A stretch of DNA of 64,000 nt from the sequence record PQ349265.1. One strand, given 5' to 3'. This document shows positions 7,104 through 32,970 of the stretch, piece by piece (the first letter of the stretch is position 1; each line of letters starts with the position of its first letter). Under the pieces are notes generated by a model, which saw nothing but the letters and a program-made list of their open reading frames with translations, made no database searches and was not told the DNA's origin. This stretch comes from Escherichia phage CJY920. Both the position numbers and the translations under genes were made by a program.

Positions 7104-8132
7104 ATGAAAACTCGTTCTCAAATTGAAGATATGGTTCGTAATGCCAGCTATACTCGTAATGTTATGACATTTTTGTGTGAAAATAATTTAGACCCTGATA
7201 AAGTTAATCGTGTTATTCATCACTTTAAGTATACGAATAGCAGTGAATGGGTGCGTAATTTTAGTAAAGCGGGGTATATTACACAAATGACTGCTCGTGA
7301 GCAGCTCACCGATTTCTGTAAAACTATTGATTATAAAAATCCTTTATTTGTTCAAGGCGTTGGTCAAAGTAAGGTCGATTTATCATCTGGATTTTTCAAT
7401 CCAAATCATTATCGTATTGAATGGAGATTTATTGCTCTGTTCCGTAGACAATTAAAGCAAATTTTATCAACTGCGAGTCGATTAAAAGGTTCTGATATTA
7501 ACTTAAAGAACCTGAAATTTGATGGTTATACTCTTCAGATGGAAGTAAGACCATTAAAAGAAAATAACAGAACTGCACGAATTAGCTTTAAACCTAATAC
7601 AAAAAATTCTCTTTCAATTTGCGAATGCCTTAAATCACAGTTGACAGAAGCATTTAAGTATATGGATGTTGTTGCTGCTGTTCAGTCTAAGATTTCACAA
7701 CATTTCGAACGATTTAAATTAGACACAACAACATATGAACTTGATATGATCGTTTCATTTAAATATGAATTTTTGAGAAAGGACGAAGTCCCGCAAGAGA
7801 AAAAGCAAGAAGTGCAAGATAACTTAAATTTAAATTTATCTAATTACTCATCAAACGATCCTAAATTTTGGATGTATAGTTCAGGTAATAAGGATGCATG
7901 GAAATTCAATAAAGTGAATTTTCTTCCTGATGAAAATCCGAGTCTTAAACCTGTTGAAAAATGGCATGCAGATGCGATTGAGAAGTCTATAAAGGCAGTA
8001 GATGATGAACTCGTTAAAGCAACTAATGAAGTGTTAGAAGCTGAAAAGATGCTAGAAAAAGCTCAAGAAAAAGTCAAAAATCTCACGAAGCAACGTTCTA
8101 AACTGAACAATGCACTAAATGCACTAAACTAG
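7104..8132 (+). CDS. hypothetical protein with C-terminal coiled coil (342 aa)
   Basis: long ORF with SD. Confidence 0.6.
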   Translation: MKTRSQIEDMVRNASYTRNVMTFLCENNLDPDKVNRVIHHFKYTNSSEWVRNFSKAGYITQMTAREQLTDFCKTIDYKNPLFVQGVGQSKVDLSSGFFNPNHYRIEWRFIALFRRQLKQILSTASRLKGSDINLKNLKFDGYTLQMEVRPLKENNRTARISFKPNTKNSLSICECLKSQLTEAFKYMDVVAAVQSKISQHFERFKLDTTTYELDMIVSFKYEFLRKDEVPQEKKQEVQDNLNLNLSNYSSNDPKFWMYSSGNKDAWKFNKVNFLPDENPSLKPVEKWHADAIEKSIKAVDDELVKATNEVLEAEKMLEKAQEKVKNLTKQRSKLNNALNALN

Positions 8133-16855: not shown

Positions 16856-18058
16856 ATGCGTATTTGCATTTTTATGGCTCGAGGTCTTGAAGGTTGTGGT
16901 GTAACTAAATTTTCTCTTGAGCAACGTGATTGGTTTATTAAAAATGGTCATGAAGTGACTTTGGTTTATGCTAAAGATAAATCATTTACCCGTAATTGCG
17001 CGCATGATTATAAATCATTTTCAATTCCAGTTTTATTGGCAAAAGAATACGATAAAACACTTAAGCTGGTAAATGATTGTGATATTCTAATTATCAATTC
17101 AGTTCCTGCTTCTTCAGTCGAAGAAGACACTATTAATAACTATAAAAAAATTATTGATAACATTAAACCTTCGGTTCGTGTTGTAGTTTATCAGCATGAC
17201 CATTCTTCTCTTTCTTTGCGCCGAAATTTGGGATTAGAAGAAACTGTTCGTCGAGCTGATGTTATTTTTAGCCATTCTGATAATGGTGATTTTAATAAAG
17301 TTCTGATGAAAGAATGGTATCCAGAAACTGTTTCTCTGTTTGATGATATTGAAGAAGCACCGACAGTATATAACTTTCAGCCTCCTATGGATATTGCGAA
17401 GGTTCGGTCAACCTACTGGAAAGATGTTTCTGAAATTAATATGAATGTCAACCGTTGGATTGGTCGTACGACTACATGGAAAGGTTTTTATCAGATGTTT
17501 GATTTTCACGAAAAACATCTTAAACCTGCTGGGCTAAGTACTATTATGGAAGGTCTGGAACGTTCTCCAGCGTTCATTCCTATTAAAGAAAAAGGAATTC
17601 CATACGAGTATTATCGTCTTCACCAAGTAGACCAAATTAAAATTGCTCCTAATTTGCCGACGCAAATTCTCGACCGTTATGTAAATAGCGAAATGCTTGA
17701 ACGCATGAGTAAATCCGGATTTGGTTATCAGCTGAGTAAGTTGGACAAAAAATATCTACAACGTTCTTTAGAATATACTCATCTTGAATTAGGTGCTTGC
17801 GGTACAATTCCTGTTTTCTGGAAATCTACTGGCGAAAATTTAAAATTCCGTGTTGATAATACTCCTTTGACCTCACATGATAGCGGTATCATTTGGTTTG
17901 ATGAAAATGACATGGAATCAACATTTGAACGTATTAAAGAATTGTCATCTGACCGAGCTCTTTATGACCGTGAGCGAGAAAAAGCATATGAATTTTTGTA
18001 TCAGCATCAAGATTCAAGCTTCTGCTTTAAAGAACAGTTTGACATTATTACAAAATAA
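16856..18058 (+). CDS. a-gt: DNA alpha-glucosyltransferase
   Basis: 400 aa MRICIFMARGLEGCGVTKFSLEQRDWFIKNGHEV...; matches remembered T4 alpha-gt. Confidence 0.9.
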   Translation: MRICIFMARGLEGCGVTKFSLEQRDWFIKNGHEVTLVYAKDKSFTRNCAHDYKSFSIPVLLAKEYDKTLKLVNDCDILIINSVPASSVEEDTINNYKKIIDNIKPSVRVVVYQHDHSSLSLRRNLGLEETVRRADVIFSHSDNGDFNKVLMKEWYPETVSLFDDIEEAPTVYNFQPPMDIAKVRSTYWKDVSEINMNVNRWIGRTTTWKGFYQMFDFHEKHLKPAGLSTIMEGLERSPAFIPIKEKGIPYEYYRLHQVDQIKIAPNLPTQILDRYVNSEMLERMSKSGFGYQLSKLDKKYLQRSLEYTHLELGACGTIPVFWKSTGENLKFRVDNTPLTSHDSGIIWFDENDMESTFERIKELSSDRALYDREREKAYEFLYQHQDSSFCFKEQFDIITK

Positions 18059-25614: not shown

Positions 25615-28311
25615 ATGAAAGAATTTTATATCTCTATTGAAACAGTCGGAAATAACATTGTTGAACGTTATATTGATGAAAATGGAAAGGAACGTACTCG
25701 TGAAGTAGAATATCTTCCGACTATGTTTAGACATTGTAAGGAAGAATCAAAATACAAAGACATTTACGGTAAAAACTGCGCTCCTCAAAAATTTCCATCA
25801 ATGAAAGATGCCCGAGATTGGATGAAACGAATGGAAGACATCGGTCTCGAAGCTCTCGGTATGAACGATTTTAAACTCGCTTATATCAGTGATACATATG
25901 GTTCAGAAATTGTTTATGACCGAAAATTTGTTCGTGTAGCTAACTGTGACATTGAGGTTACTGGCGATAAATTTCCTGACCCAATGAAAGCAGAATATGA
26001 AATTGATGCTATCACTCATTATGATTCAATTGACGACCGTTTTTACGTCTTTGATTTGTTGAATTCAATGTACGGTTCAGTATCAAAATGGGATGCAAAG
26101 TTAGCTGCTAAGCTTGACTGTGAAGGTGGTGATGAAGTTCCTCAAGAAATTCTTGACCGAGTAATTTATATGCCATTTGATAATGAGCGTGATATGCTCA
26201 TGGAATATATTAATCTCTGGGAACAGAAACGACCTGCTATTTTTACCGGTTGGAATATTGAGGGATTTGACGTTCCGTATATCATGAATCGTGTTAAAAT
26301 GGTTCTCGGCGAACGCAGTATGAAACGCTTCTCTCCAATCGGTCGAGTAAAATCTAAACTAATTCAAAATATGTACGGTAGCAAAGAAATTTATTCTATT
26401 GATGGCGTATCTATTCTTGATTATTTAGATTTGTACAAGAAATTCGCATTTACTAATTTGCCATCATTCTCTTTGGAATCAGTTGCTCAGCACGAAACCA
26501 AAAAAGGTAAATTACCATATGATGGTCCTATTAATAAACTTCGTGAAACTAATCATCAACGATACATTAGTTATAACATTATTGACGTAGAATCAGTTCA
26601 AGCAATTGATAAAATTCGTGGGTTTATCGATCTAGTTTTAAGTATGTCTTATTACGCTAAAATGCCTTTTTCTGGTGTAATGAGTCCTATTAAAACTTGG
26701 GATGCTATTATTTTTAACTCACTGAAAGGTGAACATAAGGTTATTCCTCAACAAGGTTCGCACGTTAAACAGAGTTTTCCAGGTGCATTTGTGTTTGAAC
26801 CTAAACCGATTGCCCGTCGATACATTATGAGTTTTGACTTGACGTCTCTGTATCCTAGCATTATTCGTCAGGTTAACATTAGTCCTGAGACTATTCGTGG
26901 ACAGTTCAAAGTTCATCCAATTCATGAATACATCGCAGGAACAGCTCCTAAGCCAAGTGATGAGTATTCATGTTCTCCGAATGGATGGATGTATGATAAG
27001 CATCAAGAAGGTATCATTCCAAAGGAAATCGCTAAAGTATTTTTCCAACGTAAAGATTGGAAAAAGAAAATGTTCGCCGAAGAAATGAATGCCGAAGCTA
27101 TTAAAAGGATTATTATGAAAGGTGCAGGGTCTTGTTCAACTAAACCAGAAGTTGAACGATATGTTAAGTTCAATGATGATTTCTTAAATGAATTATCGAA
27201 TTACACTGAATCTGTTCTTAATAGTCTGATTGAAGAATGTGAAAAAGCAGCTACTCTTGCTAACACAAATCAGTTAAACCGTAAAATTCTTATCAACAGT
27301 CTTTATGGTGCTCTTGGTAATATTCATTTCCGTTACTATGATTTGCGAAATGCTACTGCTATCACAATTTTTGGTCAAGTCGGTATTCAGTGGATTGCTC
27401 GTAAAATTAATGAATATCTGAATAAAGTGTGTGGAACTGATGGTGAAGATTTCATTGCGGCGGGTGATACTGATTCGGTATATGTTTGTGTAGATAAAGT
27501 TATTGAAAAAGTAGGTCTTGACCGCTTTAAAGAACAAAATGATTTAGTTGAATTCATGAATCAGTTCGGTAAGAAAAAGATGGAACCTATGATTGATGTT
27601 GCATATCGTGAGTTATGTGATTATATGAATAACCGCGAGCATCTGATGCATATGGACCGTGAAGCTATTTCTTGCCCTCCACTTGGTTCAAAGGGCGTTG
27701 GTGGATTTTGGAAAGCGAAAAAGCGTTATGCTCTGAACGTTTATGATATGGAAGATAAGCGATTTGCTGAACCGCATCTAAAAATCATGGGTATGGAAAC
27801 TCAGCAGAGTTCAACACCAAAAGCAGTACAAGAAGCTCTCGAAGAAAGTATTCGTCGTATTCTTCAGGAAGGTGAAGAGTCTGTCCAAGAATACTACAAG
27901 AACTTCGAGAAAGAATATCGTCAACTTGACTATAAAGTTATTGCTGAAGTAAAAACTGCGAACGATATAGCGAAATATGATGATAAAGGTTGGCCAGGAT
28001 TTAAATGCCCGTTCCATATTCGCGGTGTGCTAACTTATCGTCGAGCTGTTAGTGGTCTGGGTGTAGCTCCAATTTTGGATGGAAATAAAGTAATGGTTCT
28101 TCCATTACGTGAAGGAAATCCATTTGGTGACAAGTGCATTGCTTGGCCATCGGGTACAGAACTTCCAAAAGAAATTCGTTCTGATGTGCTATCTTGGATT
28201 GACCACTCAACTTTGTTCCAAAAATCGTTTGTTAAACCGCTTGCGGGTATGTGTGAATCGGCTGGCATGGACTATGAAGAAAAAGCTTCGTTAGACTTCC
28301 TGTTTGGCTGA
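25615..28311 (+). CDS. 43: DNA polymerase gp43 (family B)
   Basis: 898 aa MKEFYISIETVGNNIVERYIDENGKERTRE...; exonuclease and polymerase motifs (DIE, YGDTDS). Confidence 0.95.
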   Translation: MKEFYISIETVGNNIVERYIDENGKERTREVEYLPTMFRHCKEESKYKDIYGKNCAPQKFPSMKDARDWMKRMEDIGLEALGMNDFKLAYISDTYGSEIVYDRKFVRVANCDIEVTGDKFPDPMKAEYEIDAITHYDSIDDRFYVFDLLNSMYGSVSKWDAKLAAKLDCEGGDEVPQEILDRVIYMPFDNERDMLMEYINLWEQKRPAIFTGWNIEGFDVPYIMNRVKMVLGERSMKRFSPIGRVKSKLIQNMYGSKEIYSIDGVSILDYLDLYKKFAFTNLPSFSLESVAQHETKKGKLPYDGPINKLRETNHQRYISYNIIDVESVQAIDKIRGFIDLVLSMSYYAKMPFSGVMSPIKTWDAIIFNSLKGEHKVIPQQGSHVKQSFPGAFVFEPKPIARRYIMSFDLTSLYPSIIRQVNISPETIRGQFKVHPIHEYIAGTAPKPSDEYSCSPNGWMYDKHQEGIIPKEIAKVFFQRKDWKKKMFAEEMNAEAIKRIIMKGAGSCSTKPEVERYVKFNDDFLNELSNYTESVLNSLIEECEKAATLANTNQLNRKILINSLYGALGNIHFRYYDLRNATAITIFGQVGIQWIARKINEYLNKVCGTDGEDFIAAGDTDSVYVCVDKVIEKVGLDRFKEQNDLVEFMNQFGKKKMEPMIDVAYRELCDYMNNREHLMHMDREAISCPPLGSKGVGGFWKAKKRYALNVYDMEDKRFAEPHLKIMGMETQQSSTPKAVQEALEESIRRILQEGEESVQEYYKNFEKEYRQLDYKVIAEVKTANDIAKYDDKGWPGFKCPFHIRGVLTYRRAVSGLGVAPILDGNKVMVLPLREGNPFGDKCIAWPSGTELPKEIRSDVLSWIDHSTLFQKSFVKPLAGMCESAGMDYEEKASLDFLFG

Positions 28312-29536: not shown

Positions 29537-30277
29537 ATGATTAATGACTCTATGACAGTTGAAGAAATCCGTCTTCATTTGGGAATTGCATTAAAGGAAA
29601 AAGATTTCGTAGTTGATAAAACTGGTGTTAAAACTATTGAAATTATTGGCGCATCATTTGTAGCAGATGAACCTTTTATTTTTGGTGCTCTTAATGATGA
29701 ATACATTCAACGTGAACTTGAATGGTATAAATCTAAAAGTTTGTTTGTTAAAGATATTCCAGGCGAAACGCCAAAGATTTGGCAACAGGTAGCATCTTCT
29801 AAAGGTGAAATTAACTCGAATTATGGTTGGGCTATCTGGTCAGAAGATAACTATGCCCAGTATGATATGTGTTTAGCTGAACTTGGTCAAAATCCTGATT
29901 CTCGCCGCGGTATCATGATTTATACTCGTCCATCCATGCAGTTTGACTACAACAAAGATGGTATGTCAGATTTCATGTGTACGAATACAGTACAGTACCT
30001 GATTCGTGATAAGAAAGTCAATGCAGTAGTTAACATGAGAAGCAATGATTGCTGGGCAGGCTATCGTAATGATTATGCATGGCAAAAATACGTATTAGAT
30101 AAATTAGTATCTGATTTGAATGCAGGCGACCCATCGCGGCAATATAAAGCAGGTTCTATTATATGGAACGTTGGAAGTCTTCATGTTTACGAAAATCAGT
30201 TTTATTTAGTTGACCATTGGTGGAAAACTGGTGAAACTCATATTGCGAAAAAAGATTATAACGGTGAGTGGAAATGA
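29537..30277 (+). CDS. 42: dCMP hydroxymethylase gp42
   Basis: 246 aa MINDSMTVEEIRLHLGIALKEKDFVVDK...; matches remembered T4 gp42. Confidence 0.9.
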   Translation: MINDSMTVEEIRLHLGIALKEKDFVVDKTGVKTIEIIGASFVADEPFIFGALNDEYIQRELEWYKSKSLFVKDIPGETPKIWQQVASSKGEINSNYGWAIWSEDNYAQYDMCLAELGQNPDSRRGIMIYTRPSMQFDYNKDGMSDFMCTNTVQYLIRDKKVNAVVNMRSNDCWAGYRNDYAWQKYVLDKLVSDLNAGDPSRQYKAGSIIWNVGSLHVYENQFYLVDHWWKTGETHIAKKDYNGEWK

Positions 30278-31116
30278 TTCAATTCGTAATTCCAAGCTAT
30301 CAACGAGTAGGGGCAGTTTCTGCCCTTGATATGTTTCCGACTGATTATGAACCTCATATTGTAGTACGTGAACACGAAGAAAAAGCTTATTATGACGCTT
30401 ATGGGTCTAAAGCTAAAATTATAACTATTTCTGATGATGTCAATGGAATTGCTGGAACTCGTAAAGCAATTACTGATATGTATGCAGGTCAACGAATTTG
30501 GATGATCGATGATGATACTACTATTCGTATGAGTTCAATACGAAAGAGAGACGATAAACGGCGCGTAGATAAAGTCAATCAATTGACTCGTGAGCAATTC
30601 TATGAATTAATTCAATACGTTGAGGATGCCATGGATTGCGGGTATTATCATGGCCATGCTCGTCTACCAATTTTTAAAATTACTTCATCTTGGGGTAATT
30701 ATCGTGAAAATTCATATGGATTCACGAATACATGGTATGACCTTGGAAAACTTACGACAGAACAAATTGGGTATGGAAAAATTGATTTATGCGAAGATAT
30801 GTATGCATTTCTCAATTTAATTAATCAAGGTTATCCGCATTTGGCCTTGTTCAAATATCTAGTTGTATCTGGAAAATCACACGCTCCCGGTGGATGTAGT
30901 TCAATTCGTAGTAATTCTAAACATAATAGAGCGCTTGAGCAAATCAATAGAGAGTTTCCAGAGCAAGCTCGTTGGAAAACATCGAATATTGAAAAACGAA
31001 AATCGTTGGGTGAAGAAGATGAACCACTAAAGGTTCTTCGCATGTGTGTTTCGCGTAAAGAAAAATCAGAAGCATTTCATAAGTTTAATGCTATTCATCC
31101 AATAGCAGTTGATTAA
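30274..31116 (+). CDS. glycosyltransferase (GT-A-like, DxD), candidate DNA glucosyltransferase, not T4-type beta-gt
   Basis: 280 aa, WMIDDD DxD-like motif; occupies beta-gt locus between 42 and segA/uvsX but does not resemble T4 beta-gt (351 aa). Confidence 0.55.
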   Translation: MIQFVIPSYQRVGAVSALDMFPTDYEPHIVVREHEEKAYYDAYGSKAKIITISDDVNGIAGTRKAITDMYAGQRIWMIDDDTTIRMSSIRKRDDKRRVDKVNQLTREQFYELIQYVEDAMDCGYYHGHARLPIFKITSSWGNYRENSYGFTNTWYDLGKLTTEQIGYGKIDLCEDMYAFLNLINQGYPHLALFKYLVVSGKSHAPGGCSSIRSNSKHNRALEQINREFPEQARWKTSNIEKRKSLGEEDEPLKVLRMCVSRKEKSEAFHKFNAIHPIAVD

Positions 31117-31120
31117 TGAC

Positions 31121-31786
31121 ATGAAAAGACACAAAGAAAAGAAATATAATTATACTTATGTTATAACTAATTTAGTTAATAATAAAATTTACTACGGAAC
31201 TCATTCAACCGATGACTTAAATGATGGTTATCTGGGGTCAGGAACTTTATTAGCACAAGCCAAGAAAAAGTATGGTAAGAAAAATTTTAATTTAAGCATT
31301 CTTGGGTTTTATAAAGATTTTAAATCAGCCCGTGATGCTGAAAGAGAATTAGTAACAATAGATGTGGTAAATGATCCTATGACCTATAATTTAAAAATTG
31401 GCGGAGAGGGTGGTAGAAGAATTGGTTATAGAGTTTCATCAGAAACCAAAGAAAAAATTTCAAAAGCTCAAAAAGGAAAACCAAAACATCTTGGATTTAG
31501 TGATGTTTGCCGGAAAGCCCAGCTAGGCAAAAAGCAGTCAGAAGAAACTAAAGCAAAACGAAAAGAAGCTTTGCTTAATAATCCATATGGTTATAATAGA
31601 AATAAACCATCACATAAACGTGACCCAATAATGTGGGATAACATTGAAAAGATTAAAGAAATATGGGAAAACTCTGGAAAACCCGGTGCTATTAAGCTTA
31701 AAAAATTAGCAATTGAAGCTGGATTTCCAAATAAATCTTATGCAAGAATGCTCGAAGTATTTCGTGGAACAAGAACACTACTATAA
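31121..31786 (+). CDS. segA: Seg-type GIY-YIG homing endonuclease (SegA-like by position)
   Basis: 221 aa; YTYVITNLVNNKIYYGTHS GIY-YIG motif; NUMOD-like ETKEKISKAQKGKPK; located just upstream of uvsX. Confidence 0.7.
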   Translation: MKRHKEKKYNYTYVITNLVNNKIYYGTHSTDDLNDGYLGSGTLLAQAKKKYGKKNFNLSILGFYKDFKSARDAERELVTIDVVNDPMTYNLKIGGEGGRRIGYRVSSETKEKISKAQKGKPKHLGFSDVCRKAQLGKKQSEETKAKRKEALLNNPYGYNRNKPSHKRDPIMWDNIEKIKEIWENSGKPGAIKLKKLAIEAGFPNKSYARMLEVFRGTRTLL

Positions 31787-31794
31787 GGTATTAT

Positions 31795-32970
31795 ATGTCT
31801 GATTTAAAATCTCGTTTGATTAAAGCTTCTACTTCTAAATTGACTGCAGAATTAACAGCATCTAAATTCTTTAATGAAAAAGATGTAGTTCGAACAAAAA
31901 TTCCTATGATGAATATTGCACTTTCTGGTGAAATTACTGGTGGTATGCAATCTGGTCTGTTAATTTTGGCAGGTCCATCAAAATCATTTAAATCAAACTT
32001 TGGATTAACAATGGTGTCATCTTACATGCGTCAATATCCTGATGCAGTATGTTTGTTTTATGATAGTGAATTTGGTATTACTCCTGCTTATTTGCGGTCT
32101 ATGGGAGTCGATCCAGAACGAGTAATTCATACTCCGGTTCAATCACTTGAGCAATTACGTATTGACATGGTTAATCAATTGGATGCAATTGAACGCGGCG
32201 AAAAGGTAGTCGTTTTTATCGATTCACTTGGTAACTTAGCTTCTAAGAAAGAAACTGAAGATGCTTTAAATGAAAAAGTTGTTAGTGATATGACTAGAGC
32301 TAAAACAATGAAAAGCTTATTTCGTATCGTAACTCCCTATTTTAGTACTAAAAATATTCCATGTATTGCTATTAACCATACATACGAAACACAAGAAATG
32401 TTTAGTAAAACCGTTATGGGAGGCGGGACTGGACCGATGTATTCGGCTGATACGGTATTCATTATCGGTAAGCGCCAGATTAAAGATGGTTCTGATCTTC
32501 AGGGGTATCAATTTGTTCTAAATGTAGAAAAATCTCGTACCGTCAAAGAAAAAAGTAAATTCTTTATTGATGTTAAATTTGACGGTGGCATCGATCCTTA
32601 TTCTGGATTGTTAGATATGGCTCTTGAATTAGGATTTGTAGTAAAACCTAAAAACGGTTGGTATGCTCGTGAATTTCTTGACGAAGAAACCGGCGAGATG
32701 ATTCGCGAAGAAAAATCTTGGCGTGCAAAAGATACCAATTGCACTACATTCTGGGGTCCTTTATTTAAGCATCAACCATTCCGAGATGCTATTAAACGTG
32801 CTTATCAGTTAGGTGCTATTGATAGTAATGAAATTGTTGAAGCTGAAGTTGATGAATTGATTAACTCAAAGGTTGAAAAATTTAAATCTCCAGAAAGTAA
32901 AAGTAAATCAGCAGCTGATTTAGAAACTGACCTAGATCAGTTAAGTGATATGGAAGAATTTAATGAATAA
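31795..32970 (+). CDS. uvsX: recombinase UvsX (RecA-like)
   Basis: 391 aa; Walker A GPSKSFKS. Confidence 0.9.
   Translation: MSDLKSRLIKASTSKLTAELTASKFFNEKDVVRTKIPMMNIALSGEITGGMQSGLLILAGPSKSFKSNFGLTMVSSYMRQYPDAVCLFYDSEFGITPAYLRSMGVDPERVIHTPVQSLEQLRIDMVNQLDAIERGEKVVVFIDSLGNLASKKETEDALNEKVVSDMTRAKTMKSLFRIVTPYFSTKNIPCIAINHTYETQEMFSKTVMGGGTGPMYSADTVFIIGKRQIKDGSDLQGYQFVLNVEKSRTVKEKSKFFIDVKFDGGIDPYSGLLDMALELGFVVKPKNGWYAREFLDEETGEMIREEKSWRAKDTNCTTFWGPLFKHQPFRDAIKRAYQLGAIDSNEIVEAEVDELINSKVEKFKSPESKSKSAADLETDLDQLSDMEEFNE

Follow-up and report, generated by a model that had tools for sequence, protein, structure and literature searches.

The host defences that can act against a T-even phage are determined by the sugar pattern on its hydroxymethylcytosine (hmC), and the defences concerned are McrBC, GmrSD/BrxU-type type IV enzymes, the Brig1 glycosylase, CRISPR-Cas and type II enzymes (PMC13216743, PMC13390438). 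The glucosyltransferase difference between T2/T6 and T4 is a textbook T-even polymorphism. T2 and T6 carry an alpha-glucosyltransferase (alpha-GT) together with a TET-associated glycosyltransferase (TAGT), which glucosylates the alpha-glucosylated cytosine to gentiobiosyl-methylcytosine (PMC13216743). TAGT has a GT-A fold and is sister to GT2, and the T4-type genotype of alpha plus beta was found in only six of 753 genomes (PMC13216743). The TAGT gene is syntenic with the beta-GT gene of T4 (PMC13390438; AEM 2026). In the same study, ten Tequatrovirus phages that carry alpha-GT and TAGT were analysed by HPLC/MS, which detected 5-hmdC, alpha-glc-mdC and alpha-gent-mdC, and no beta-glc-mdC. The three nucleosides were present at ~1:2:2 in phages EL, BGP and Geo, with ~40% gentiobiosyl-hmC in EL, and the other seven phages contained ~1/3 5-hmdC and ~2/3 alpha-gent-mdC (PMC13390438). 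The classical values for gentiobiosyl-hmC are ~5% in T2 and ~72% in T6 (PMC13390438).

The sequence analysed here was a 64-kb stretch (hereafter the window) of a roughly 168-kb genome; it belonged to a Tequatrovirus phage, was ~96% identical to several deposited phages and matched none of them completely. We conclude with high confidence that positions 30274..31116 encode the T2/T6-type enzyme (ba-gt), a single-domain GT-A glycosyltransferase that would add the second glucose after the action of gene 42 and alpha-gt. The gene is of an already known kind: the genotype was described in two 2026 papers, and the annotation exists in many records.

Gene arrangement around ba-gt

The genes used in this analysis were as follows.

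16856..18058, + strand: alpha-gt, DNA alpha-glucosyltransferase, 400 aa (PF11440, 784 bits; 366 of 400 residues identical to T4 alpha-gt)
25615..28311: gene 43, upstream of gene 42
29537..30277, + strand: gene 42, dCMP hydroxymethylase (PF00303, thymidylate-synthase family; syntenic with gene 42 of T4, T6 and T2)
30274..31116, + strand: ba-gt, also ggt or TAGT, 280 aa (ORF, PHROG 842, PF20691, identity to T2/T6)
31121..31786, + strand: segA, GIY-YIG homing endonuclease (219 of 221 aa identical to T4 SegA; PF01541 and NUMOD3)
31795..32970: uvsX, 3' of segA and followed by genes 40 and 41

The ba-gt ORF was uninterrupted, with 280 codons from the ATG at 30274 to the TAA at 31114-31116. Its start codon overlapped the stop codon (TGA) of gene 42 in the sequence ATGA, and this overlap was also present in T2. 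A mechanical ORF call had placed the start two codons earlier, at the GTG at 30268; it was rejected in favour of the ATG because MIQFVIPSY opens every homologue. The segA gene is a mere neighbour of ba-gt and stands outside the modification pathway.

A G+C-rich hairpin (GGGGCAG-TTT-CTGCCCT, 30308..30328) was located 34 nt inside the ORF and had been flagged as terminator-like. It was dropped as a candidate, since its stability was no better than that of shuffled sequence (z -1.47; 19 of 200 shuffles folded as well). In the related record LR215724.1, a "terminator" is annotated under the match.

Identification as the T2/T6-type enzyme

The window protein was identical to the T2 enzyme at 271 of 280 positions (97%, all 280 aa) and was 96% identical to the protein of both T6 records over its full length. 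T6 and T2 carry the gene at the equivalent position, between gene 42, which immediately precedes it, and uvsX. Over its full length the protein matched PHROG 842, "beta-glucosyl-HMC-alpha-glucosyltransferase", with a value of 2.9e-87, and the same name is the product name on many deposited records (hundreds in GenBank). It also matched PF20691 (TAGT) with 38.0 bits against a gathering cut-off of 27.5, where residues 3-207 aligned to model positions 2-205 of 205. NCBIfam had no model for it.

The alpha-gt gene was intact (92% identity to T4 alpha-gt, and recovered in full length with the T4 query as well). The window thus combined an intact alpha-gt with no beta-gt match within its 64 kb, the co-occurrence that marks the ba-gt orthologue group. 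The assignment as ba-gt is based on orthology and synteny, on the fold and the conserved motifs, and on the presence of alpha-gt. An earlier note made from the sequence had described a 280-aa ORF between gene 42 and segA/uvsX next to an intact alpha-gt, had suggested that it was possibly a beta-alpha-glucosyl transferase, and had proposed an alignment to the T2/T6 enzyme as a check. The ORF and its flanking genes were confirmed by Pfam and by the identity to T4 SegA, alpha-gt proved complete, and the proposed alignment, with the values given above, supported the suggested function.

A tblastn search of 50,697 phage records gave 688 records that matched the window protein. Among them, 474 were at least 90% identical and belonged to Tequatrovirus phages of Escherichia, Shigella, Yersinia and Salmonella, and ~200 had 60-80% identity and came from T4-like phages of Klebsiella and Enterobacter. 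A word-indexed protein search yielded 10 relatives and no more; the wider family became visible when 1.84 billion cluster representatives were searched exhaustively with a profile, which gave 898 relative clusters at E <=1e-3.

Fold and conserved residues

A PDB sequence search with the window protein found no relative (best E 0.78, to an unrelated protein). An AlphaFold2 model was built from nine homologues and had a mean pLDDT of 74 and a pTM of 0.76. The N-terminal 130 residues were well determined (pLDDT mostly 73-95), and the stretches of low confidence were 132-140, 192-211 and 236-247, which limits how far the model defines the surface that binds the acceptor. The model predicted a single Rossmann-like alpha/beta/alpha nucleotide-binding domain, as expected of a GT-A enzyme. 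Conservation was assessed by aligning 60 diverse homologues taken from the 898 relatives; their identity to the query was 16-63%, and PF20691 matched every one of them (60/60). R11, D80, D175, G186 and G207 were invariant, and I6, P7, E35, R63, D79, D81, G206 and R212 were conserved in at least 90% of the homologues. Three short motifs were considered.

30289..30306, + strand: IPSYQR, codons 6-11, N-terminal strand-loop motif (R11 in 60/60; I6 and P7 each in 90% or more)
30499..30516, + strand: WMIDDD, residues 76-81, with D79-D80-D81 as the DxD motif, predicted to bind metal and UDP-sugar
30793..30798, + strand: E-D of "CED", codons 174-175 (D175 in 60/60, E174 in 50/60)

The three aspartates of WMIDDD were found in 59 (D79), 60 (D80) and 58 (D81) of the 60 homologues. 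Since the motif is conserved across these homologues, it is a genuine feature and not a chance run of Asp. In the model, DDD directly followed the fourth strand (74-78), with a loop after the strand (pLDDT ~91), and this is the canonical site of DxD in GT-A enzymes. We take the IPSYQR motif to resemble the "IPxYN" nucleotide-binding signature of GT2 enzymes. D175 was placed by the model at the N-terminus of the helix 174-184, where it presumably corresponds to the catalytic base (ED/TED motif) that inverting GT2 enzymes have. By this analogy we infer that D175 is a candidate catalytic base.

The possibility that the window protein is a T4-type beta-gt in disguise was rejected. BLASTP against T4 beta-gt (351 aa, NC_000866) gave a best E of 2.9 over seven residues, and thus no detectable similarity; PF09198, the family of T4 beta-gt, had no match in the protein at E <=1; and tblastn with T4 beta-gt detected no such gene across the 64 kb of the window, where the best E was 1.4. 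Instead of the two domains of a GT-B enzyme, the model showed one, and its best-scoring structural neighbours all had GT-A or nucleotidyltransferase folds. The earlier note had proposed that the protein is not a T4-type beta-glucosyltransferase and that its DxD-like WMIDDD is more typical of GT-A enzymes, and had named clear homology to T4 beta-gt as the result that would speak against this reading. The BLASTP search found no such homology, and both proposals agreed with the results on similarity, conservation and model position.

Predicted modification pathway and DNA sugars

A three-step pathway like the one known from T2 and T6 is the most likely. The gene 42 product would make hm-dCMP, which would then be incorporated in the phage DNA. 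Subsequently, alpha-gt would move glucose from UDP-glucose to 5-hmC in the DNA in alpha linkage, and the product would be the acceptor of ba-gt. Finally, ba-gt would add a second UDP-glucose-derived glucose onto the first in beta-1,6 linkage, giving alpha-gentiobiosyl-hmC. Catalysis by ba-gt would most likely proceed by inversion from UDP-alpha-glucose: D79-D80-D81 would bind a divalent metal and the UDP diphosphate, the IPSYQR loop would bind the nucleotide, and the invariant D175, by analogy, may act as the general base that activates the 6-OH of the acceptor.

The genotype of alpha-gt plus ba-gt therefore predicts gentiobiosyl-hmC and no beta-glucosyl-hmC. The phage DNA should contain a T6-like mix of hmC, alpha-glucosyl-hmC and gentiobiosyl-hmC without beta-monoglucosyl-hmC, a sugar pattern deduced from the genes. 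Such a prediction from genotype serves host-range and restriction forecasts for this phage.

The reference records of T2 and T6 carried lesions in this gene. All three T2 records (AP018813, MH751506 and LC348380) had R11H, at a residue that was invariant in the 60 TAGT homologues. The two public T6 genomes differed in their ba-gt lesions. Record MH550421 had a TAG amber codon at codon 10 (7951-7953, minus strand), and its annotation has the protein start at M20 instead. Record NC_054907/AP018814 had lost one Asp of DDD in frame, so that its protein had 279 aa, and this T6 protein was used as the TAGT reference in a recent study (PMC13216743). Because gentiobiosyl-hmC was ~5% in T2 and ~72% in T6, R11H is a candidate one-residue explanation and might account for the low gentiobiosylation of T2.

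Two other explanations of the window gene were considered. The first is that ba-gt is present but weak or inactive, so that the DNA is essentially alpha-monoglucosylated as in T2. Lesions do occur in the gene, as in the T2 and T6 records above, and the window protein had seven private substitutions compared with both T2 and T6 (K46, S53, I89, K95, R97, S202 and H203). However, all seven were at variable columns of the alignment, the ORF was full length, and Q10, R11, DDD and all invariant or near-invariant residues of the family were kept. Moreover, the enzyme of phage EL (OZ034682.1) was 98.6% identical to the window protein, and its DNA carries the substantial gentiobiosyl fraction cited above (PMC13390438). 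We therefore regard a weak or inactive enzyme as improbable. The second explanation, that the enzyme differs from that of T6 in specificity (in its sugar donor, in the linkage formed or by acting on hmC directly) and makes a product other than gentiobiose, could draw on the breadth of the TAGT family (898 clusters at E <=1e-3) and on TAGT homologues that lie beside beta-GT or alone and imply varied acceptors across the family (PMC13216743), but in the ten phages with alpha-GT plus TAGT glucose and gentiobiose were the only adducts (PMC13390438), and the 96-97% full-length identity to the T2/T6 enzymes makes such a change very unlikely, the more remote of the two. The preferred reading is thus an active T2/T6-type ba-gt, and since Q10, R11 and DDD are intact in the window gene, a T6-like or EL-like pattern is favoured over a T2-like one.

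A ba-gt relic in T4 and the segA-uvsX tract

The end of the ba-gt ORF was found in T4 as well.

31094..31116, + strand: last 23 nt of the ba-gt ORF, kept in T4 (22 of 23 identical in a three-way alignment)

In T4, this relic lay immediately before the start of segA, within the 164 nt that separate beta-gt from segA. T4 and the window ceased to be homologous at 30259 and were homologous again from 31094, and this gap coincides almost exactly with the ba-gt ORF. The 23-nt relic together with this gap suggests, as read from the alignment, that a resident ba-gt was displaced by beta-gt in the T4 lineage. The words remnant, relic and segA do not appear in the text of PMC13216743.

The positions 31683..32411, comprising the end of segA and the first ~600 nt of uvsX, were 100% identical to T4, and segA as a whole was 99% identical. 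In T6, 137 of 600 uvsX positions (31800-32399) differed from the window. Judged from these identities, the T4-identical tract beside segA resembles a co-conversion tract at a homing endonuclease. The contiguous order of gene 42, ba-gt, segA and uvsX was covered in only eight of 505 matching phage records.

These observations can be joined in one scenario. The ba-gt-segA-uvsX order of the window would represent the state before the T4 locus arose, the beta-gt of T4 would be a recent swap over ba-gt, an intact R11 would give T6-like high gentiobiosylation, and R11H would explain the difference between T2 and T6. We put this scenario forward tentatively, as a whole that is nearly as plausible as its negation. 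If it is true, the alpha-plus-beta pattern of T4 is a recent secondary replacement.

Comparison with known systems

T4 beta-gt and ba-gt share UDP-glucose as donor, and the linkage that each makes on phage DNA is beta. T4 beta-gt occupies the same chromosomal slot, from gene 42 to segA/uvsX, as ba-gt in the window. The acceptors differ, since T4 beta-gt uses hmC itself, whereas ba-gt uses the glucose of alpha-glucosyl-hmC. The folds also differ: T4 beta-gt is a GT-B enzyme, and the window ba-gt is a GT-A enzyme according to the model and to the description of TAGT (PMC13216743).

The GT2 inverting GT-A enzymes (the catalytic domain of BcsA, TarS, TarP and PcManGT) were only 10-15% identical to the window protein, and the GT2 Pfam models had no match in it. 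Unlike these examples, the window ba-gt is small, soluble and single-domain, and its acceptor is glucosylated DNA. Within the TAGT family of PF20691, the window protein was fairly divergent (38 bits, where the family best was 8.3e-27). The family was named for its neighbourhood of TET/JBP dioxygenases, whereas the window ba-gt adjoins a dCMP hydroxymethylase and its acceptor is the sugar already on hmC.

The alpha-gt plus ba-gt genotype is the majority genotype in Tequatrovirus, with T4 as the exception, and the window adds nothing biologically new in this respect. Its closest counterparts were the ba-gt genes of T2 and T6, which shared the length of 280 aa, the slot after gene 42, the alpha-gt partner, the DDD motif and the invariant residues. 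Besides the seven substitutions, which were conservative or at variable sites, two differences from them were observed. In the window ba-gt is directly followed by segA, which T2 and T6 lack, and the window gene is free of the lesions of the reference stocks, namely R11H in T2 and the Q10 amber codon or the loss of one Asp in T6.
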